NCBI GenBank assembly: GCA_041738755.1
Contig: JBGSPE010000005.1
Coordinates: 207,872 to 271,871 of the forward strand
Origin: Minisyncoccia bacterium
GTDB lineage: Bacteria; Patescibacteriota; Minisyncoccia; Phycocordibacterales; UBA918
Reading direction: 5' to 3'
DNA: 64,000 bases
In this document: positions 3,643 through 62,541 of the stretch, one piece after another
Layout: each line of letters begins with the position of its first letter
Position numbering within the stretch: the first letter of the stretch is position 1
Notes under the pieces: generated by a model
The model's input: the letters and a program-made list of their open reading frames with translations, nothing else
Told to the model about the DNA's origin: nothing
Database searches by the model: none
Translations under genes and position numbers: made by a program

Positions 3643-3870
3643 ATGGATCAAGAGATTACAGCAGTTAAGGACGACCTTGTATATGGGATTGTGGAGGAAG
3701 CTCTACCCAATGCGCTTTTTCGTGTCAAAGTTGAGGGAGCAGATTCACTTCTGCTTGCGTACCTCTCGGGCCGAATGCGTAAGTTTCGTATTAGAGTTCT
3801 CGTAGGCGACAAAGTTGGTATGGTCACTGATCCGTACGGAGGGAAAGCCAGAATCACAAAGCGTATATAA
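3643..3870 (+). CDS. infA: translation initiation factor IF-1
   Basis: 75 aa containing GIVEEALPNALFRVKVEGADSLLLAYLSGRMRKFRIRVLVGDKV, the canonical IF-1 S1-like fold sequence. Confidence 0.95.
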   Translation: MDQEITAVKDDLVYGIVEEALPNALFRVKVEGADSLLLAYLSGRMRKFRIRVLVGDKVGMVTDPYGGKARITKRI

Positions 3871-7208: not shown

Positions 7209-7619
7209 ATGTCAGCTACTAAAAAATCAGTATACGTAGAAGGAATCGGTCGTCGTAAAACTGCGACAGCTCGAGTTCGTCTTACCCCAGCAAGCGAAAC
7301 AACGATTCTCGTCAACGACAAGAAGCTCACGGACTACTTTGGTAACCTTGGTCACCAAAAGGACGTGCAGTCAGTGCTTGATACCAAAGATGCAGGAATC
7401 GAAGACTACAGCATCACGGCTCATGTTTCAGGCGGTGGTATCTCATCACAAGCTGAAGCAATCCGACTTGGTATCGCTCGAGCCCTCGTGAAGGAAAAGG
7501 CAACTCGCCGAAGCCCACTGAAGGCCGGAGGATTCCTTATGCGAGATCCGCGTTCAGTAGAACGAAAGAAGTTTGGACTTAGGAAAGCTCGAAAGCGCCC
7601 AGCCTGGAGTAAGCGCTAA
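7209..7619 (+). CDS. rpsI: ribosomal protein S9
   Basis: C-terminus ...GGGISSQAEAIRLGIARAL...KAGGFLMRDPRSVERKKFGLRKARKRPAWSKR. Confidence 0.95.
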   Translation: MSATKKSVYVEGIGRRKTATARVRLTPASETTILVNDKKLTDYFGNLGHQKDVQSVLDTKDAGIEDYSITAHVSGGGISSQAEAIRLGIARALVKEKATRRSPLKAGGFLMRDPRSVERKKFGLRKARKRPAWSKR

Positions 7620-7753: not shown

Positions 7754-8053
7754 TTAGTTAGTATCTAAAAGCTTATATAATCTTTTCTTTAACTTTTCAG
7801 GCATAGATCCTGGAGCTTTATTTTGATTTTCATATCTTTTAAGTATTTGAATTTCATCATCTTTTTTACCTTCTTTGTTATATATAATTGCGAGCTGCTC
7901 ATAATACCAAGGAGCAACACCCCAGCCTTCCCGCTCATCTTCCATTTCAGTAGCTTCCACGCATTTTAATAAAATCTCAATCGCTTCAGTGTACTTACCA
8001 TCCTTTTTTAGTTTTTTGATTGTTTCTACGTATTTTACATAATCCATGTACAT
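7754..8053 (-). CDS. hypothetical small helical protein in a low-GC islet (possibly TPR-like)
   Basis: 99 aa, K/E-rich, with GWGVAPWYYEQLAIIYNKEG. The local GC is much lower than the flanks. TATAAT lies immediately upstream, so the likely start is the third Met and the mRNA leaderless. Confidence 0.45.
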   Translation of the reverse strand: MYMDYVKYVETIKKLKKDGKYTEAIEILLKCVEATEMEDEREGWGVAPWYYEQLAIIYNKEGKKDDEIQILKRYENQNKAPGSMPEKLKKRLYKLLDTN

Positions 8054-15321: not shown

Positions 15322-15639
15322 ATGAAGTTGAAAAACATTCTACTAACCAGTGCAGTTGTGCTGTTTTTGGCAATCAGTATTGGAGCAACATATTATAAAA
15401 TGGTAGTTCTTCAAGATTTTGAGACAACTGGTATCTGGCTAGAATTTGTAGAGGAAGAATCAACCTATGTTTTCTTTGTCTATGAAAACGTCGAGTATGA
15501 ACTTGAGTTAGAAACGACTGATTATAATCTTATATTACTAAGTATTTCAGATGAAGTTGGCATACCAGTAGCTGATTTAGATCCAGACTTTCTTGAATAC
15601 CTTCAAGGTTCTTACGAAGAAGCCAGTTCATCAGAATAA
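15322..15639 (+). CDS. small secreted/anchored acidic protein
   Basis: An N-terminal hydrophobic signal or anchor (LLTSAVVLFLAISIGA) and an acidic C-terminal half. Confidence 0.45.
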   Translation: MKLKNILLTSAVVLFLAISIGATYYKMVVLQDFETTGIWLEFVEEESTYVFFVYENVEYELELETTDYNLILLSISDEVGIPVADLDPDFLEYLQGSYEEASSSE

Positions 15640-15643
15640 ACAT

Positions 15644-16243
15644 ATGAAAAAACCACAAATCTACTCATGGATGAATCCATCGCTAACAATTAAACGAACT
15701 GACCGGTATGGTAGTGCAGATTTGCCGACAATTAAAAACGGAAAAAAAACATATTCCAAGAAAAAAGGTTTAGGTTTTGCGGTATTTGCAAACAAAAAGA
15801 TTAAAAAAGATGAAGTTCTGTTTGTTATGGGTGGTTATGTTTTAACAATCGAAGATGAAAACGAACTATCAGGTATCGTCGCTGATAAACCTATCGAAAT
15901 TTCTGAAAAATTTTCAATAGGGCCACGTAAACCATCCGATATAGAAAAAATGCCTCAACATTATGTTAATCATAGCTGTAACCCTAACGCTGGATTCAAC
16001 GGACAAGTGTTTATGGTGGCTATGAAAAACATAAAAGCTCATGAAGAAATTGTTTATGACTATGCAATGATTATGCACACAAACAGTAAGAGTAATAGTT
16101 TTTTCACATTTGAGTGTTTATGTGAAAGTAAGGATTGTCGTAAAAAAATTGGAGAGAACGATTGGAAAATTAAAGACTTACAAAACAAGTATGACGGTTA
16201 TTTCCAGTACTATTTACAGGAAAAAATTAATAGACTTAAATAA
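15644..16243 (+). CDS. SET-domain protein (putative protein lysine methyltransferase)
   Basis: GLGFAVFANKKIKKDEVLF; the NHSCNPN motif; EEIVYDY; a post-SET CLCESKDCRKK. The likely start is ATG 15644, in frame with the track ORF. Confidence 0.7.
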   Translation: MKKPQIYSWMNPSLTIKRTDRYGSADLPTIKNGKKTYSKKKGLGFAVFANKKIKKDEVLFVMGGYVLTIEDENELSGIVADKPIEISEKFSIGPRKPSDIEKMPQHYVNHSCNPNAGFNGQVFMVAMKNIKAHEEIVYDYAMIMHTNSKSNSFFTFECLCESKDCRKKIGENDWKIKDLQNKYDGYFQYYLQEKINRLK

Positions 16244-26370: not shown

Positions 26371-26856
26371 ATGGATACAACATTTTTGAAACAAGAGCTG
26401 ATTCGTGACTTAAGCAGTATTGATGCTGAAGACATACTTTCAGAGTGGGAATGGCTGTTGGAAGAAAAAATGGAGCTAGTTCTTGTATCCAGTATTGGAG
26501 ATATGTTCCTAAAAAATACTAAAGGGGAAATATTTTTACTAGACACACTTGGTGGTGAACTCAAGCGTGTTGCTGACTCCGAAAATGACTTCGCAGAACT
26601 ACTTACACACAAAGAAAAGCAAGAAGAGCTTCTATCAAGGACGTTTGTAGAAACACTAATTGAAAGCGGTAAGACATTGTCTCCAACAGAGATTTATAGT
26701 TTTATGGTCTTGCCAGTTCTAGGAGGCGACTTCACACCTGAAAATATCGAGCCCACTGACATATCAGTCCATTTTTCAATGACAGGCCAAATCCATAAGC
26801 AAGTACACGATCTTCCTGACGGAACTGAAATAGATGGCGTAGTTTTGGAATCTTAA
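26371..26856 (+). CDS. hypothetical protein (possible Tdi1/DUF1851-like immunity domain)
   Basis: IGDMFLKNTKGEIFLLDTLGGELKRVADSENDF resembles the GDxF..G..hhLD motif of DUF1851. This is a recollection, not verified. Confidence 0.35.
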   Translation: MDTTFLKQELIRDLSSIDAEDILSEWEWLLEEKMELVLVSSIGDMFLKNTKGEIFLLDTLGGELKRVADSENDFAELLTHKEKQEELLSRTFVETLIESGKTLSPTEIYSFMVLPVLGGDFTPENIEPTDISVHFSMTGQIHKQVHDLPDGTEIDGVVLES

Positions 26857-30869: not shown

Positions 30870-30889
30870 GCGCATGCTACACTTATGTC

Positions 30890-31633
30890 ATGAGTGATGC
30901 TGTCACTAGTATTTTTTCTATCAAAACGGACACCTTTGAAGGTCCGCTTGAATTGTTAATTGAGCTCGTCGAGAAGCGAAAACTTTTGATTAATAGCATC
31001 AGCCTCGCCAGCGTAACTGATGAATACATGGCTCGAGTAAGTGCCATGCAAGAACAATCACTGCCACATACCGCGCAGTTTATTACCCTGGCTGCCACAC
31101 TCCTCCTTATTAAGAGTAAATCATTACTTCCAATCCTTGATCTCACTGATGAAGAAGAGGCAAGTATTGAAGACCTTAATGAACGACTCAAGCAGTACCA
31201 ACTGTTTCGTTCGATTGCGGTCGTTATTCAGAGCACCTACGGTCAAGCAGTGATGCATGAACCTGAGTACACACCACCAAGAGAGCCACTTTTTATCCCT
31301 GACACATTTACCACTGTCACTTCGCTAAAAGAGGCGATGGAGCGGGTGATCACCAATCTTCCAAAAGCAGCACCGGAAAAACCGACCGCTCGTGTCAGGC
31401 CGACTATCTCACTTGAAGAAATGATGGATAATTTAAAACGAAGGATTGAACAACAGATGAAGATGAGCTTTTTTGATATCAAACGGAGAGAACCAGAGCG
31501 TAAAAATGTGATTGTTGGATTCCTGGCAATCTTGGAACTTTTTAAACAAGGTGATGTATTAGTGACACAACTCACACGCTTTGCTGATATTGAAATGGAA
31601 TTAGAACGGAGCGAGATTCCTCGGTATTACTAA
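30890..31633 (+). CDS. scpA: segregation and condensation protein A
   Basis: FEGPLELLIELVEKRKLLINSISLASVTDEY. The start is at MSDAV.., an internal Met of the track ORF. Confidence 0.85.
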   Translation: MSDAVTSIFSIKTDTFEGPLELLIELVEKRKLLINSISLASVTDEYMARVSAMQEQSLPHTAQFITLAATLLLIKSKSLLPILDLTDEEEASIEDLNERLKQYQLFRSIAVVIQSTYGQAVMHEPEYTPPREPLFIPDTFTTVTSLKEAMERVITNLPKAAPEKPTARVRPTISLEEMMDNLKRRIEQQMKMSFFDIKRREPERKNVIVGFLAILELFKQGDVLVTQLTRFADIEMELERSEIPRYY

Positions 31634-31646
31634 GATATAAAAAAGA

Positions 31647-31716
31647 CCGGTTGGTCTAGAGCTATCGTCATCCTACACACGTGCAGGGATAGCTTAAGAC
31701 CAACCGGCTATAAAGT
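31647..31716 (-). terminator. 70-nt imperfect hairpin with U tract on the minus strand (terminator-like)
   Basis: GACCGGTTGGTCTAGAGCTATC...GATAGCTTAAGACCAACCGG. The minus-strand sense ends in TCTTTTTTAT. Confidence 0.45.
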
Positions 31717-31812
31717 GAGGGTACCCTTCACCAAGGAATTTGGAGAAGGCCCTTTGGGTCGCTGGACGATACTACCAGAAGATTAGTATCTGGCAAGTAA
31801 ATTTTGCTTTAA

Positions 31813-31832
31813 ACAATATATTAATATATTGT
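31813..31832. repeat. 20-bp perfect palindrome ACAATATATTAATATATTGT
   Basis: Seen directly in the sequence; candidate operator or protein-binding site. Confidence 0.8.
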
Positions 31833-31838
31833 CAAATT

Positions 31839-31900
31839 AAAAGGCCGGAGTCCCTGGGGTACACATGTAACACGTGGGGGGACTCCGGCCTTGGCTTTTT
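31839..31900 (+). terminator. strong stem-loop followed by GGCTTTTT
   Basis: AAGGCCGGAGTCCC...GGGACTCCGGCCTT, a 14-bp GC-rich stem with an inner palindrome ACATGT. Confidence 0.55.
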
Positions 31901-31979
31901 ACGAGGCTTAGCTCGGCTCACCGGTGGGGAATTGTTCCGACGAACGTACCCAATGGGAGACTAATGCGTTGGGAGGTCA

Positions 31980-32090
31980 ATGAGCTATAACGAGTACTTT
32001 ATAGCCTGTCCTGCACTGTTCACCGCTGCATGTTCTGGACTTATAATAGCACTATTTATTCAATTGGTCAACAGAAGCCCTCTTTTATAG
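31980..32090 (+). CDS. 36-aa hydrophobic peptide (small membrane peptide, type I toxin-like)
   Basis: MSYNEYFIACPALFTAACSGLIIALFIQLVNRSPLL. An SD (GGGAGG) ends 3 nt before the ATG. One predicted TM helix. Not in the ORF track because it is under 60 aa. Confidence 0.4.
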   Translation: MSYNEYFIACPALFTAACSGLIIALFIQLVNRSPLL

Positions 32091-32142
32091 CAAAGAATAC
32101 TACTTGCACCTGGACTTAAGAGAAAATATGTATAGAGAAAGT

Positions 32143-32190
32143 AAAACCCCTGCCAACTCTTGAGAGAGTGGCAGGGGTATGAAGGTTTTT
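32143..32190. terminator. bidirectional terminator shared by the convergent small ORFs
   Basis: CCCCTGCCA..TGGCAGGGG, flanked by AAAA on the left and a T run on the right. Confidence 0.6.
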
Positions 32191-32253
32191 GATACCTACA
32201 AACAGTTATCGGCGTCTTTCGCCGGGTTCAGACTTTCGGCCGACCAGGATCGA

Positions 32254-32370
32254 TCAGATCGTGGCGGCGCCGGCGATCGCGGCAGGGATCGAGGTGTTGC
32301 TGTCGAGCGTTTCATCATAGGCCGGGGCAGCGGTCGTGCCGGGCGGCTGGAAGGTGCAGATGGTCTTCAT
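32254..32370 (-). CDS. 38-aa Ala/Thr/Pro/Gly-rich peptide ORF with strongly anomalous GC
   Basis: MKTICTFQPPGTTAAPAYDETLDSNTSIPAAIAGAATI. GC3 is about 86%, against roughly 35% in neighbouring genes. SD GGGAGA lies 7 nt upstream. The overlapping 32179..32394 plus-strand track ORF is an R/G-rich frame shadow. Confidence 0.45.
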   Translation of the reverse strand: MKTICTFQPPGTTAAPAYDETLDSNTSIPAAIAGAATI

Positions 32371-32419
32371 AGGATATTCTCCCAAAGAGTCTGAGAGCGA
32401 GAATGCTTCAGACCCCTAG

Positions 32420-32448
32420 ATATTAGCATATGACACACAATATGTCAA
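32420..32448 (-). promoter_or_regulatory. strong sigma70-like promoter (TTGACA-17-TAATAT) driving the minus-strand small ORF
   Basis: Minus-strand -35 is the complement of 32443-32448 and -10 the complement of 32420-32425. A GTCAA direct repeat and a TGACA/TGTCA inverted repeat overlap it. Confidence 0.6.
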
Positions 32449-32531
32449 GCGTCAAATGATGGTTTTTTGCAGGGGAGTAACTATGCACAAAAAACACACG
32501 AATTAAAGGTTTTTCGTGCTAAACTGCCGGT

Positions 32532-33053
32532 ATGCCATTGTCGGTCCTCATTGAAGCAGTGCTGTTTTATAAAGCCAGCCCACAAAAGAAATCTGTCTTG
32601 CAGAAGCTTTTTATGGCTGACGATGTAGTGTGGCATGAAGCCATTACCGAACTTAAAAGTCGACTAGAGTCAGGAGCTACCCGCCTGGTAGAAACTGATA
32701 CTGAATTATTGCTGGCCACTGCCCCAGAACTCTCAGAACTAATAGACTCACTCCGCAAGGAAGAACTTAAGGGTGATATCGGAAAAGCAGGGGCTGAAAC
32801 TCTGGCTATCGTTCTCTATAAAGAACCGGTATCGAGAGCAGAGATAGATCGTATCCGTGGTGTAAACTCTGCGTTTATCTTACGCAACCTCATGGTCAAG
32901 GGACTTATCAAGCGTGAAGCAGTGGGGAATAGTTTTCAATTTCATATCACTCCTGAGCTCTTGCAACACCTCGGTATTACAAATAAAATCAATCTCCCGC
33001 AGTACAGTGAATTCATGACTGCTCTTGAGACATTTAACCAAACTCCCGTATGA
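32532..33053 (+). CDS. scpB: segregation and condensation protein B
   Basis: ...AEIDRIRGVNSAFILRNLMVKGLIKRE..., a ScpB winged-helix pattern. Confidence 0.85.
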   Translation: MPLSVLIEAVLFYKASPQKKSVLQKLFMADDVVWHEAITELKSRLESGATRLVETDTELLLATAPELSELIDSLRKEELKGDIGKAGAETLAIVLYKEPVSRAEIDRIRGVNSAFILRNLMVKGLIKREAVGNSFQFHITPELLQHLGITNKINLPQYSEFMTALETFNQTPV

Positions 33054-40124: not shown

Positions 40125-40754
40125 GTGATTTGGCACAAAAAATATATAGTACCAAAAGACACGATCTTGTGTCTCAACCGAAAGGACTGTCATATGACGA
40201 CGGCACTTACAGCTGTCTTAGACGGTAAAATGAATGATGACCAACTCGGCATGCTCCACAGACGAGTGGATGAAATAAAGCGCCGGATAAACGAAGACAC
40301 TATTTCTTACTACGAGACTGTTGCGGTACTTCAGATTATCATTGAAGGTAAGACCGAACGTCTTAAGCCCTGCGCAAGACGACACCGGTCAGAACCACTA
40401 CCATTTGTCCGCCCTCCGATAGGGAAGCGTAAAAAGTCGAAAGCTCCGATGCGATTGCGTCTACCAGAATTCCTCCAGCGTTTGTACTTTAATTATCGAA
40501 CGAAAATCTTTGCTTACGAACGATGGAATAAGATGCTGACACCAGAAGATATTATGGCCCAAATGTGGGAAGCAGAAAACATTCCAGAGCCATGGCATAA
40601 CCAAGGAAGAGTTCCAGTCCAAACCATCCTTGGCAATGACACGCCGCCAGACAGGGAAGTGATGATCTTGTCTTCGACGTTACAGTGGCTTGGCACCAAC
40701 CAAGGAAGAGACTTCCTTGTTCGATTCATCAGAGCGGCAGACATAACAATCTAG
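40125..40754 (+). CDS. hypothetical basic protein
   Basis: 209 aa (or from MTTALT.. at 40194); no family recognised. Confidence 0.45.
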   Translation: MIWHKKYIVPKDTILCLNRKDCHMTTALTAVLDGKMNDDQLGMLHRRVDEIKRRINEDTISYYETVAVLQIIIEGKTERLKPCARRHRSEPLPFVRPPIGKRKKSKAPMRLRLPEFLQRLYFNYRTKIFAYERWNKMLTPEDIMAQMWEAENIPEPWHNQGRVPVQTILGNDTPPDREVMILSSTLQWLGTNQGRDFLVRFIRAADITI

Positions 40755-40776
40755 TACGTGATGGAAAGAAATAATA

Positions 40777-40809
40777 AATCGCTCGCACCAATCAGGTGCG
40801 AGCGATTTT
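40777..40809 (+). terminator. rho-independent terminator
   Basis: AAATCGCTCGCACC-aatca-GGTGCGAGCGATTTT. Confidence 0.8.
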
Positions 40810-41488
40810 CTAAAGACAATTATGAATGTCGCACAATATTTTAATATCGAGAGAAGCAGGGGAGAGGCGAGGGCAATTTTTGGATTATCGACACATTACT
40901 GGCCTTTGAACCGACTGAAATCGTGGCTGCAAGACTAGGAAAATTTTACAGGTGCAAGCAACGAAATTTGCATTCAAATATAAATTTTATTATATGAATT
41001 ATTTTGAAATTTATTTTAAATAAAATTAAGATTATTTACATTATTTTTAAATCATCCTAGAGATGACTCAAATCATGACTGAATCTACCGAGGTAAAAAT
41101 TCACTGAACTCACGACCTATTTTGAGACGACCTTACCTACGTCTCAAAATACTTCACAAGCCTTAGAATCGATTCTAGAGGCTCATATAGAAGCCTCACA
41201 AGAGCCAGCGGAAGCTGCATACGTAGGCATAGATGTAATATGAGCCTAGAGCTGAACGATTATGTAAATCAAAGCAAAATGTAAAATCTGACAAAATGTA
41301 AATACCGAAAGCCCAAGCGATGAAATAAACGGTACAATGTACCTAAACAACAAATCAGCAGATCCTACAACGCCTTATACAGCCTCAGAACAGCAGTATA
41401 GTAAGGCTTATATATACAACAGTATACTAAACTGTATGTCGCAAAAGATATATTGTGCGACATACATGAATACTATGTATATAAAGGC

Positions 41489-42277
41489 TTACTCCTCAGC
41501 AATATATGCCCCACCAAGGAACTGGGCGGCTAGCGCATCATTGTGAGCATCAAGTTTTGTTAAATGAATTTGCCGCTTCCCTGTATCAGCTATGAGAGAA
41601 GCTATTTCAAGATGCCTATCTAAATATTCACCAAGTTTCTGGGGGATGATTTCATCTTGAGAGAAAATGTGTACCAAATCGCCATATCGTTCACGCAATC
41701 GATCTTTCAGAATTGCATAGTGCGTACAGCCTAAAACCACCACCTCCCCTTCCCTTCGATTTGTATCAATGTATTGCGCGGCGACTTCAACAGCCTCATC
41801 AAGCTGTCCGTCTTCTATTAATGGTACCAGTGCTGGCGTTGCCAATCCTCGTAAGGTGACGGTACCATTTGAACGGTGCTCTAATTCAATCTGATACTTA
41901 CCCGACTCAACCGTACGCTTCGTGCCAATCAATAACCCTGAAGTATGACCCTCTGTCAGGATTGTTTCGATGGTTGGGATAATCACTCCCAAAATTTTTC
42001 TATCTGGAAATTCGTTTGGTAGGAAGGTATTTTGAAGTTTTCGTAACGTTTCAGCCGAAGCGGTATTACACGCTACGACAACTAATGCGCAGTCATGTAG
42101 GAACAAGTGTCGCATAGCGGCTACCGAATACTCATAGATTAACTCTTCTGGTTTATCACCATACGGAACATGAGCGGTATCGCCGTAATAGTAATAGTCA
42201 TACTGTGGTAACTGTTTTGCTACTGCCTTGAGTATGGTGAGTCCACCTAATCCTGAATCAAAAAAGCCGATGTTCAT
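41489..42277 (-). CDS. murI: glutamate racemase
   Basis: MNIGFFDSGLGGLTILK...; the paired catalytic Cys region (VVACNTAS; GCTHY). Confidence 0.92.
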   Translation of the reverse strand: MNIGFFDSGLGGLTILKAVAKQLPQYDYYYYGDTAHVPYGDKPEELIYEYSVAAMRHLFLHDCALVVVACNTASAETLRKLQNTFLPNEFPDRKILGVIIPTIETILTEGHTSGLLIGTKRTVESGKYQIELEHRSNGTVTLRGLATPALVPLIEDGQLDEAVEVAAQYIDTNRREGEVVVLGCTHYAILKDRLRERYGDLVHIFSQDEIIPQKLGEYLDRHLEIASLIADTGKRQIHLTKLDAHNDALAAQFLGGAYIAEE

Positions 42278-42735
42278 ATTCTTCCTCGTTTACACAATAG
42301 GTCAAAATCTTTTTTTAGTAGTGGCATGATGGATAGTCGACTACCTTTTTGCACGAGTGGTAGATGACCAAACACGGTATCTGCTTTAATTTCTGATAAG
42401 GTGACCACTCGGGAGAATTTTTCCTTAAACATTACCTGGCGAGTAACCCACGTCGGATTATCTTTTTTAGACTTTGGGTCATAATACTCACTTGCAGCAT
42501 CAAACTGAAGCCCGTCGACGACCAACTCCCCCACCACCTCCATAATCCCGACGGCTCCAGTCTCTTTTCCTGCGTTTGAGTGGTAAAACAGTGCTTTGTC
42601 GCCAGGAGAAAAATCATCCCGCAGCATATTGCGTACCTGGTAGTTACGGACGCCATCCCAGGTGGTTGTACCGTCTTTCTGGAGCTGGTCGATAGAATAT
42701 GCCTCTGGCTCACTTTTCATCAACCAATACTTCAT
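42274..42735 (-). CDS. EVE (PUA-like) domain protein
   Basis: MKYWLMKSEPE...W.GVRNYQVRNMLR hallmark. Confidence 0.8.
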   Translation of the reverse strand: MKYWLMKSEPEAYSIDQLQKDGTTTWDGVRNYQVRNMLRDDFSPGDKALFYHSNAGKETGAVGIMEVVGELVVDGLQFDAASEYYDPKSKKDNPTWVTRQVMFKEKFSRVVTLSEIKADTVFGHLPLVQKGSRLSIMPLLKKDFDLLCKRGRI

Positions 42736-62142: not shown

Positions 62143-62541
62143 CTACCAATTAAGATACGTCACACTGAGTTGCAACACCGTAGCGAATGATACCCAGAGT
62201 AGGTATGGGATTTGCAAGTAAGTAATAAACTGAGCGTGTGGCCAGACAGCCCACATTGCCCACACCAGGGTAAGTAGCACGAGGAGAATAACGAAAGAAG
62301 CAAGCGGGAGATTATTAAGACCAAACTGTACCGGAGTGAACGCAAAATTTGCCATCAAGTTCAATACAAATGGCACTGCCACCAACGCGGGAATGTGACC
62401 TTGCCACACTTTTAGAAATACGTACCCAAAACTAAAGGCAATAATAAGATAGAGGACACTCCACACCGGGCCAAAAATCCAAGCTGGCGGAGAGAACCAC
62501 GGTTTGATATATGAGGCGTATTGAGTAGTAGTGTTTTCCAT
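62143..62541 (-). CDS. TspO/MBR-family membrane protein
   Basis: PPAWIFGPVWSVLYL hallmark. Confidence 0.7.
   Translation of the reverse strand: MENTTTQYASYIKPWFSPPAWIFGPVWSVLYLIIAFSFGYVFLKVWQGHIPALVAVPFVLNLMANFAFTPVQFGLNNLPLASFVILLVLLTLVWAMWAVWPHAQFITYLQIPYLLWVSFATVLQLSVTYLNW

Follow-up and report, generated by a model that had tools for sequence, protein, structure and literature searches.

What fills the long gap between scpA and scpB in a member of the Patescibacteria, and is this gap the trace of a broken operon? The question is raised by a stretch of 64,000 nucleotides (nt) from a Minisyncoccia bacterium (assembly GCA_041738755.1, contig JBGSPE010000005.1), analyzed over its whole length and hereafter called the window. 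The window has a GC content of 43.5% and is of the Paceibacterota/Parcubacteria/Kaiserbacteria type of Patescibacteria (candidate phyla radiation, CPR), as metagenome-assembled genomes so named carry the best relatives of its ScpB. The genes scpA (30890-31633, plus strand; 247 amino acids, aa; Pfam SMC_ScpA, E 9.1e-18) and scpB (32532-33053, plus strand; 173 aa; Pfam SMC_ScpB, E 5.5e-32) are separated by exactly 898 bp (31634-32531), the largest intergenic gap in the window. The distance had been given in a preliminary description of this DNA and is borne out by the two Pfam-identified reading frames; the same scpA gene call is found in L001 (loci are denoted by L and a number throughout). To the author of that description, the architecture resembled a small autonomous module that had landed inside the scp operon. 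In our assessment the gap probably hosts three independent sigma-70-type transcription units, predicted from the sequence and all oriented opposite to scpA and scpB, in an intergenic slot conserved in the lineage.

Three predicted units in a variable junction

Promoters were paired, in a scan of our own, with downstream terminators made by a hairpin and a T-run. All the strong signals of the gap lie on the minus strand and are arranged in series, with promoters at 32448, 32071 and 31796, each followed by a hairpin and a T-run. U1 (32413-32139, ~275 nt) is a predicted mRNA. Its promoter (32448-32420; TTGACA-17-TAATAT with a TG upstream, TATGCTAATAT) had already been recognized in the preliminary description. 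From a start at ~32413, U1 features a 5' stem-loop, a Shine-Dalgarno (SD) sequence, an open reading frame (ORF) at 32370-32254, a 3' untranslated region (UTR) of ~75 nt, and a terminator hairpin (32178-32146, 10-bp outer stem) followed by UUUUAC. U2 (32036-31834) is a predicted small RNA (sRNA) of ~200 nt, assigned to the minus strand by the orientation of its promoter (32071-32043; TTGACC-17-TATTAT, TG upstream) and terminator (31892-31841, followed by UUUUAAUUU), with a start at ~32036. U3 (31762-31637), a predicted sRNA of ~125 nt, has a promoter at 31796-31769 (TTGCCA-16-TAGTAT, TG upstream), a start at ~31762, and a terminator hairpin at 31707-31647 followed on the minus strand by UCUUUUUU (31646-31637). 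We infer the ends of the three RNAs from these signals.

The promoters of U2 and U3 had been missed previously. Since they are there, the two long hairpins noticed in the gap, which are both found (31647-31707, 20-nt arms; 31841-31892, 14-nt perfect arms), are best read as the terminators of two sRNA genes. The hairpin at 32146-32178 lies between two converging ORFs and had been taken for a terminator shared by both; its T-run (TTTTAC) is on the minus side only, and it ends the minus-strand ORF. The notion of autonomous small transcription units with promoters and terminators of their own is supported by the sequence, as is that of a small-peptide locus, one of the units being to all appearances a real small-peptide gene. 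A simple scan detected 5 promoter-like sites, against 2.3 +/- 1.3 expected, a number that for one sequence taken alone does not exceed chance. The features of the gap are judged real because they are conserved in related loci, not from the scan of a single sequence.

Contigs encoding the closest ScpB proteins were retrieved, and their gaps compared. ScpB is 88-89% identical in L002, L003 and L004, where the gap measures 1203, 818 and 970 bp, respectively, and 74% identical in L005/L006, where it measures 390 bp. For the greater part of their length, across U3, U2 and U1, the spacers of L002 to L004 can be aligned with that of the window. The units are thus found at the same place in three relatives and are not specific to one strain; conservation of the spacer in related lineages is the comparative half of what the preliminary description had set down as speaking against its own reading. 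An alignment-based ScpB scan of species-representative genomes added 80 loci, whereas scans with single ScpB proteins gave no confirmed locus in genome contigs and one locus in metagenomes. Both genes are present in 78 loci. Since the gap is short in 40 of these (22-125 bp, mostly ~50-60 bp) and long in the other 38 (145-1936 bp), the scpA-scpB junction is, on the sequences compared, a recurrent variable slot in this clade.

Long gaps share the strand bias of the window. In 37 long-gap loci promoter-like sites number 45 on the minus and 7 on the plus strand, terminator-like sites 81 and 44. The same serial minus-strand layout was detected, by the scan for promoters and hairpin/T-run terminators, in L002, L003, L004, L010, L011 and L038. 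Two other large gaps of the window are free of cassettes of this layout. L003 carries a different RNA-like sequence at the position of U2, between the same kind of promoter and terminator, and in L011 a U2-like unit resides on the opposite side of a U3-like unit. Because one locus swaps a unit and the other reorders them, the cassettes are, by sequence, modular.

Additional products are encoded on the minus strand of some gaps. L002 encodes a 57-aa two-helix membrane peptide (1351-1524, hydropathy 2.64), L088 a 128-aa protein with a hydrophobic N-terminus (1048-1434), L090 a 91-aa poly-acidic (poly-Asp/Ser) protein (2022-2297), and the gaps of L048 and L053 membrane proteins of 61 and 124 aa.

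The genes flanking the slot look like separate leaderless transcription units, as judged from extended -10 elements in positions where no SD is found. Read from the sequence, the elements TGCTACACT (30875-30883, plus strand) and TGCTAAACT (32517-32525, plus strand) end 6 nt before the ATG of scpA and scpB, respectively. In nearly all the 78 related loci, with short and long gaps alike, the ATG of scpB has a TGnTAnnnT-type element 5-8 nt ahead of it. In a motif scan of the window, 14 long ORFs have an extended -10 (TGnTAnnnT) 5-8 nt before the ATG and no SD, against 1 in a control made by reversed or complemented sequence. These are scpA, scpB and 12 others, mostly at called gene starts, and suggest that leaderless mRNAs are common in this genome. 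Examples of such starts are found at 15322, 25080, 36209, 51804 and 57406 on the plus strand, and at 62541, 57349, 46868 and 44819 on the minus strand.

Neither of the marks of a co-transcribed scpAB operon, lack of an intervening promoter and coupled or SD-dependent translation of scpB, was found by sequence. The preliminary description had assumed that scpA and scpB are normally adjacent or overlapping, which does not apply to this clade, where gaps of ~50 bp already hold the scpB promoter. The operon said to be split by an insert thus dissolves into two genes, each with a leaderless-type extended -10. If scpA and scpB are separate leaderless units, as they appear to be, this would explain why the interval ahead of scpB tolerates occupants.

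A short hairpin (CACGAA/TTCGTG, 32496-32519) is located between the divergent promoters of U1 and scpB, and overlaps the TG of the scpB -10. In relatives the hairpin has a covarying stem of 12-16 bp (GCACG/CGTGC, CCTCG/CGAGG, GGGGGCG/CGCCCCC, CCTGG/CCAGG), and the hairpin, with a GAAAAAC-N3-4-GTTTTTC core inside its stem, lies just ahead of scpB in L010, L011, L012, L066, L078, L082, L083 and L085. It is probably a terminator or an insulator; it could work in both directions, or could be the site of a regulator overlapping the scpB -10. Five short-gap loci devoid of cargo (L007, L018, L071, L082 and L083; 66-91 bp) feature a minus-strand TTGACA just upstream of the scpB promoter region, directed into the 3'-terminal part of scpA and perhaps representing an antisense promoter of ancestral origin.

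The peptide gene of U1

The U1 ORF (32254-32370, minus strand; MKTICTFQPPGTTAAPAYDETLDSNTSIPAAIAGAATI, 38 aa plus stop) is preceded by the SD sequence GGGAGA (32378-32383), 7 nt before the ATG. SD-preceded ORFs of ~26-51 codons were identified on the minus strand of the gap in 18 loci, ~19 if L088 is included, down to ScpB identities of ~53-55%. Upstream regions of the 18 loci align over a -35 element, cTTGAC(A/T), a spacer of 16-18 nt and a TG-preceded -10 (mostly TATGCTAnnnT), and further over a 5' UTR of ~45 nt with a covarying stem-loop, the SD, present in all 18, and the ATG. In the window the stem-loop spans 32413-32389 and the fold z score is -3.6. Downstream of the ORF, a 3' UTR block (AACUGUUUGUAGGUAUCAAAAACCUUCAU) is kept in L002 and L003, and the terminator stem is kept in L004 by compensatory changes (CCCCAGTGG/CCACTGGGG).

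The peptides share the N-terminus M-K-x-x-F-x-P-x-G(H/T), as in MKTICTFQPPGT (window), MKINFSPQGH, MSSINFSPHGH, MFFDPGGH and MTTSSFHPPGS, and a looser L-G-(A/D)-G motif near the C-terminus; the remainder varies. The N-F-S-P-x-G motif is encoded by different synonymous codons in different loci. Base composition is peculiar. The GC contents at first, second and third codon positions (GC1, GC2, GC3) average 0.55, 0.52 and 0.78 in the family, and are 0.50, 0.63 and 0.87 in the window member, so that GC3 far exceeds GC1 and GC2 in the peptide frame across the family. Set against the genes of the window, the peptide gene has a GC3 of 0.85, where the mean is 0.41 and the maximum in any 38-codon stretch 0.71. 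A conserved start signal, a frame-specific composition and amino acids kept through synonymous change, the marks by which a small ORF can be told as coding, are all found here. Because SD and ATG are fixed, the motif changes are synonymous and the GC3 excess is specific to the frame, the U1 ORF is held to be coding, and U1 appears by sequence to encode a real small protein of a new family, found so far at this position only.

Gene callers have placed plus-strand ORFs over the GC-rich region. A 71-aa ORF is called in L001 at 3648-3863 (window 32179-32394), a 102-aa ORF in L004 at 954-1262. In the 71-aa ORF GC1 (0.65) exceeds GC3 (0.53), a pattern typical of an antisense shadow, and in L003 this ORF is cut to 10 codons while the minus-strand peptide ORF is kept. 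Both calls are antisense shadows of the real peptide gene on the minus strand.

The maximal hydropathy over 17 residues is <=0.84 in the family, and thus no member has a transmembrane-like segment; the peptides are neutral to acidic. Queried with 10 members of the family, Pfam and NCBIfam returned nothing meaningful at E up to 10 (one hit at chance level, E 0.098). A 43-aa version of the peptide, used as a homology query, returned no candidates, and a 19-member profile recovered only the peptides of these same loci. The hits of a phmmer search against 1.84 billion representatives were long low-complexity proteins only, and were discarded as spurious. All the homologues found are antisense, between scpA and scpB.

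The head of the peptide, MK(I)T(R)TFQPP, is similar to the start of ribosomal protein bL34 (MKRTFQPS) and contains a PPG motif, at which ribosomes are known to stall in an EF-P-dependent manner. A bL34-like nature of the peptide was considered and rejected, as no Pfam L34 match appeared at E up to 10 and the peptide is otherwise acidic or neutral rather than basic; the resemblance is probably a coincidence.

The candidate small RNAs U2 and U3

U3 consists of a free 5' end (GCGACCCAA), a variable hairpin and the terminator hairpin. The promoter block, TTGC..-16-CTGGTAnnnT-CGTCCAGCGACCC, is kept in L002, L003, L004, L010, L011 and L092. In an alignment of six loci (window, L002, L003, L004, L010, L011) CGACCC is invariant at the predicted 5' end, and the middle hairpin differs in sequence from locus to locus. 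The terminator stem is kept in L004, L010 and L011 and exhibits compensatory changes and G-U pairs, which would be A-C mismatches if the other strand were transcribed; no T-run is found on the plus side. U3 of the window has a fold z score of -6.4, with GCGACCCAA unpaired. A covariance model of U3 found no copy beyond its six source loci in 556 kb of related sequence, and so added no covariation power. The heptamer GCGACCC, the same as the invariant 5' end of U3, was noticed also inside a hairpin (GUUGCGACCCAAAUAUGGGUCAGCAAC) of the RNA-like unit of L003, at 300-350 of the gap (~2612-2662 of the locus).

U2 could be aligned in five loci (window, L002, L004, L011, L013), with conserved blocks and a conserved stem. 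Equivalents of its promoter are found in L002, L004, L011, L013 and L005. The unit comprises the stem AGUCUCCC/GGUGAG, a CGAG..CUCG hairpin and the terminator; conserved blocks are an unpaired CCUCC and the series AGUCUCCC...GGUGAGCCGAG...CUCG. The fold z score is -3.0. The terminator hairpin (31841-31892) is bidirectional, with UUUUAAUUU on the minus and GGCUUUUU on the plus side. Its base, AAGGCCGG...CCGGCCTT, is kept in L002, L004, L005, L008, L010, L011 and L013, and the form AAGGCCGG/CCGGCCUU is widely shared. Judging from the plus-side tract, the scpA transcript likely ends here.

Just after the U2 terminator, an AT-rich sequence (ACAATATATTAATATATTGT, 31813-31832) overlaps a minus-strand TTGACA (31833-31828). 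It is the 20-bp perfect palindrome of the preliminary description, and in the window the symmetry is indeed perfect; the corresponding sequences of L002, L003 and L004 keep the TTGACA and are not palindromic. A dif-like or operator site was considered and rejected, as the palindrome is not conserved and, compared by eye, does not resemble the XerCD dif consensus.

At gathering thresholds Rfam gave 0 matches in the whole window and in 35 related long-gap loci. In E-value mode the region 31500-32700 gave chance-level matches only (E 1.1-5.5, far below gathering scores). Scans for tRNA and tmRNA found none.

Alternative explanations and relation to known systems

The surroundings of the slot are those of a housekeeping region. 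scpB is followed by closely packed genes that overlap one another and form a run with it (S11 peptidase, MraY-like, FtsW, MurG), and the window encodes ribosomal proteins, RpoA, DnaK/J, aminoacyl-tRNA synthetases, the MraY-FtsW-MurG block and DnaB. Some domains are unexpected for a reduced genome: a protein with the C-terminal domain of the type VI secretion system immunity protein Tdi1 (26371-26856, plus strand), a SET-domain protein adjoining a histidine kinase (15593-16243, plus strand), and an EVE-domain protein (42274-42735, minus strand). A lone 99-aa ORF with no Pfam match (7754-8053, minus strand) resides in a plus-strand block, between the ORF at 7209-7619 and grpE. At 40754-41489, an AT-rich gap of 735 bp that contains no convincing ORF, gene orientation changes from plus (left) to minus (right). 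The arrangement is convergent, as at a replication terminus; no search for a dif-like site was made there.

How else could the scpA-scpB gap be explained? A strain-specific mobile or horizontally acquired insert, splitting the operon, would fit gap lengths that vary from 22 to 1936 bp among relatives, a cargo that differs between genomes and includes the extra genes of L002 (57 aa), L088 (128 aa) and L090 (91 aa), the shuffled order of L011, and the foreign-looking codon usage of the peptide gene (GC3 0.85 in a window of 43.5% GC). An insert of this kind is unlikely all the same, as the same units occupy the same place in L002-L004, U3 is present also in L010 and L011, U2 in L011 and L013, and the peptide family extends to ScpB proteins of ~53-55% identity. 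No direct or inverted repeats bracket 31634-32531, where the long inverted repeats are internal hairpins only; the gap sequence is single-copy within the 64 kb, blastn searches against phage and plasmid sequences gave no match, and no transposase or integrase was found among the 66 window proteins scanned. The promoters and the 5' UTR are host-like in composition and conserved, and an scpB promoter present even in 50-bp gaps leaves no operon to be split. The search of the gap in Rfam and mobile-element sequences proposed earlier thus returned no Rfam, phage or plasmid match, and the mobile insert envisaged there lacks flanking repeats, a second copy, a mobility gene and a phage or plasmid relative within the 64-kb window.

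Similarly improbable is the idea that U1 encodes the precursor of a ribosomally synthesized and post-translationally modified peptide (RiPP), a bacteriocin or a pheromone. The conserved F-x-P-x-G head would act as a leader and the variable C-terminal part as a core, an idea favored by the second motif of the L-G-A-G type near the C-terminus, by the high variability of the residues between and after the motifs, by the abundance of G, A, S, T and D, and by the strong conserved promoter. Yet the 66 proteins of the window include no modifying enzyme, C39-peptidase exporter or immunity gene; in every locus the neighbors of the peptide gene are scpA, scpB and cell-wall genes rather than genes of the RiPP type; the 10 members searched in Pfam and NCBIfam, at E up to 10, match no precursor family; and the peptide has neither a signal peptide nor a hydrophobic segment. 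Even less credit is given to U1 as a GC-rich non-coding RNA with an incidental ORF. Stops are rare in sequence of 65% GC, an open frame of ~38 codons is not improbable at this composition (by our own estimate ~0.46 for 30 codons), GC is likewise raised in the 100 nt that follow the peptide ORF (family mean 0.59), and the low fold z score of U1 would suit a structured RNA. These facts have to be set against an SD and an ATG fixed in position in 18 loci, a GC3 exceeding GC1 and GC2 in the peptide frame only, and a motif kept through synonymous changes; the C-terminal half is not conserved in nucleotides, which argues against a conserved RNA structure there, and U1 has no Rfam match.

The type I toxin-antitoxin (TA) system suggested in the preliminary description is given an equally low probability. 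Of the two converging SD-preceded ORFs on which the suggestion drew, both exist in the window, and only that of U1 has counterparts in relatives. The plus-strand ORF (31980-32090, 36 aa, SD GGGAGG) shares its sequence in part with the promoter and the 5' portion of U2 on the opposite strand. It could be seen as a toxin, being transmembrane-like (maximal 17-residue hydropathy 2.19) with a strong SD, and U2, antisense to its first ~19 codons and its ribosome-binding site, as the antitoxin; otherwise the toxin would be the 38-aa peptide and U2 would act in trans, the CCUCC and UCUCCC motifs of U2 being complementary to SD sequences. In L002, L004, L011 and L013, though, the underlying RNA sequence is conserved while the plus-strand ORF lacks a start codon, is interrupted by an in-frame stop, or is replaced by short unrelated ORFs. 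No plus-strand promoter was found ahead of it, between 31892 and 31980, and this ORF is unlikely to be a gene. Hydrophobic segments are lacking in the conserved peptide family, the duplexes of U2 and U3 with the leader of the peptide mRNA have z scores of -2.1 to +0.7 relative to shuffles, and Pfam and NCBIfam gave no match for the peptide family, no dedicated TA search having been made.

Several points weigh also against three independent minus-strand units. Promoters, RNA ends and translation are all predictions. The count of promoter-like sites in the window alone is only ~2 standard deviations above shuffles, and fold energies do not discriminate the strands for U2. The covariation evidence is thin, with only 5 homologues of U2 and 6 of U3 and few pairs showing double changes. 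Neither RNA yielded a target: GGGTCGCTGG, the complement of the U3 seed, occurs in the window at the level of shuffles, and the duplexes of U2 or U3 with the leader of U1, computed by RNAduplex, are no better than those of shuffles. The peptide family is very divergent (mean column identity 20%), and some of its distant members (L010, L052, L080) may be small ORFs that occupy the slot without being related. The peptide gene, with its extreme GC3, is a compositional anomaly. If the units are not expressed, the region is simply a variable spacer.

Three independent units remain the explanation that we prefer, and may work as follows. U1 (~32413 to 32139) would supply a strongly expressed, non-membrane small protein; a role of U1 as a regulatory RNA is a conjecture. 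U2 (~32036 to 31834) and U3 (~31762 to 31637) would be sRNAs ending at intrinsic terminators, and scpB and scpA would each be transcribed as a leaderless mRNA from its own extended -10. The scpA transcript probably ends at the hairpin 31841-31892, and its 3' UTR would therefore be fully complementary to U3. The mode of action that we favor as the most likely for U2 and U3 is regulation by base pairing: U3 would act as a riboregulator through the invariant unpaired CGACCC at its 5' end, and may also be a cis-antisense partner of the scpA 3' UTR, while U2 would act on ribosome-binding sites through the exposed CCUCC. As scpB appears independent of upstream transcription, the space in front of it would tolerate gain, loss and shuffling of promoter-terminator cassettes.

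A further reading, which we hold to be rather doubtful, regards the peptide gene, fixed in antisense between the two kleisin-complex genes, as the part that can be seen of a cassette slot undergoing diversification in Paceibacterota. It would encode strongly expressed products of 30-50 aa with a conserved F-x-P-x-G head and a hypervariable tail rich in G, A, S, T and D; its synonymous sites are ~80-90% GC in genomes of ~40-45% GC. The GC3 excess could stem from frequent recombination (GC-biased gene conversion), from repeated import from a high-GC partner, or from selection at the RNA level. As for its role, the peptide might be an effector, either diffusible or aimed at a host, or else a regulator linked to the expression of SMC-ScpAB via U3, the antisense of the scpA 3' UTR.

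The locus offers three compact candidates for regulatory RNA or small protein in the CPR, with clear predicted ends, and a small-protein family that has a conserved address and can be traced in metatranscriptomes. Literature searches found nothing on the scpA-scpB gap locus or its sRNAs. Genome annotation is concerned in two ways. Since scpA and scpB look like separate leaderless units, a long gap between them in this clade is not evidence of disruption, and a gene caller has put a spurious 71-aa plus-strand ORF over the real peptide gene on the minus strand. The GC3 excess of a gene that is vertically syntenic could bear on recombination, or on selection at synonymous sites, in reduced genomes.

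In Firmicutes and many other bacteria scpA and scpB are adjacent and form a co-transcribed operon. The two genes of the window have the same order and orientation as in those operons. They differ in that each has its own leaderless-type extended -10 promoter, and in that the genes of this clade are always separated, by 22-1936 bp, with a gap of at least 145 bp in 38 of the 78 loci, most of which feature minus-strand promoter-like sites. The TA systems hok/sok, tisB/istR and fst/RNAII are similar in having a small ORF with a strong promoter next to sRNAs, and the hydrophobic plus-strand ORF is overlapped antisense by U2; they differ from the present locus, where the hydrophobic ORF lacks counterparts in relatives, the peptide that is conserved has no membrane-like character, and RNA-RNA pairing is not supported.

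The locus can also be likened to trans-acting sRNAs encoded in intergenic regions. Those that combine a 5' seed with hairpins and an intrinsic terminator include RybB and OmrA/B in enterobacteria, and sRNAs with C-rich motifs include RsaE/RoxS in Firmicutes. U3 resembles sRNAs of this type in its sigma-70-type promoter, in a 5' end that is conserved and single-stranded, in the variable hairpin that follows, in its Rho-independent terminator and in its length of ~125 nt, and U2 in its unpaired C/U-rich CCUCC. U2 and U3 differ from known sRNAs as they have no Rfam match and their genes are in tandem, antisense between two kleisin-complex genes; we know of no chaperone context in Patescibacteria. 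U1 in turn is akin to the short mRNAs of small proteins (<=50 aa) and to dual-function sRNAs, such as SgrS/SgrT, RNAIII/hld and SR1/SR1P, as it is monocistronic and ~275 nt long, has a strong promoter of its own, and combines a structured 5' end and an SD with a 38-codon ORF, a block conserved in the 3' UTR and a terminator. Its peptide is set apart from described small proteins by the lack of homology, by being neither hydrophobic nor basic, by a GC3 about twice that of the genome, and by a hypervariable C-terminus. The kinds of element, sRNA genes and a small-protein gene, are known ones; the families appear to be new and, as far as seen, confined to this clade and this address, their odd feature being a frame-specific GC3 excess and a hypervariable C-terminus in a gene whose place has stayed the same across deep divergence.

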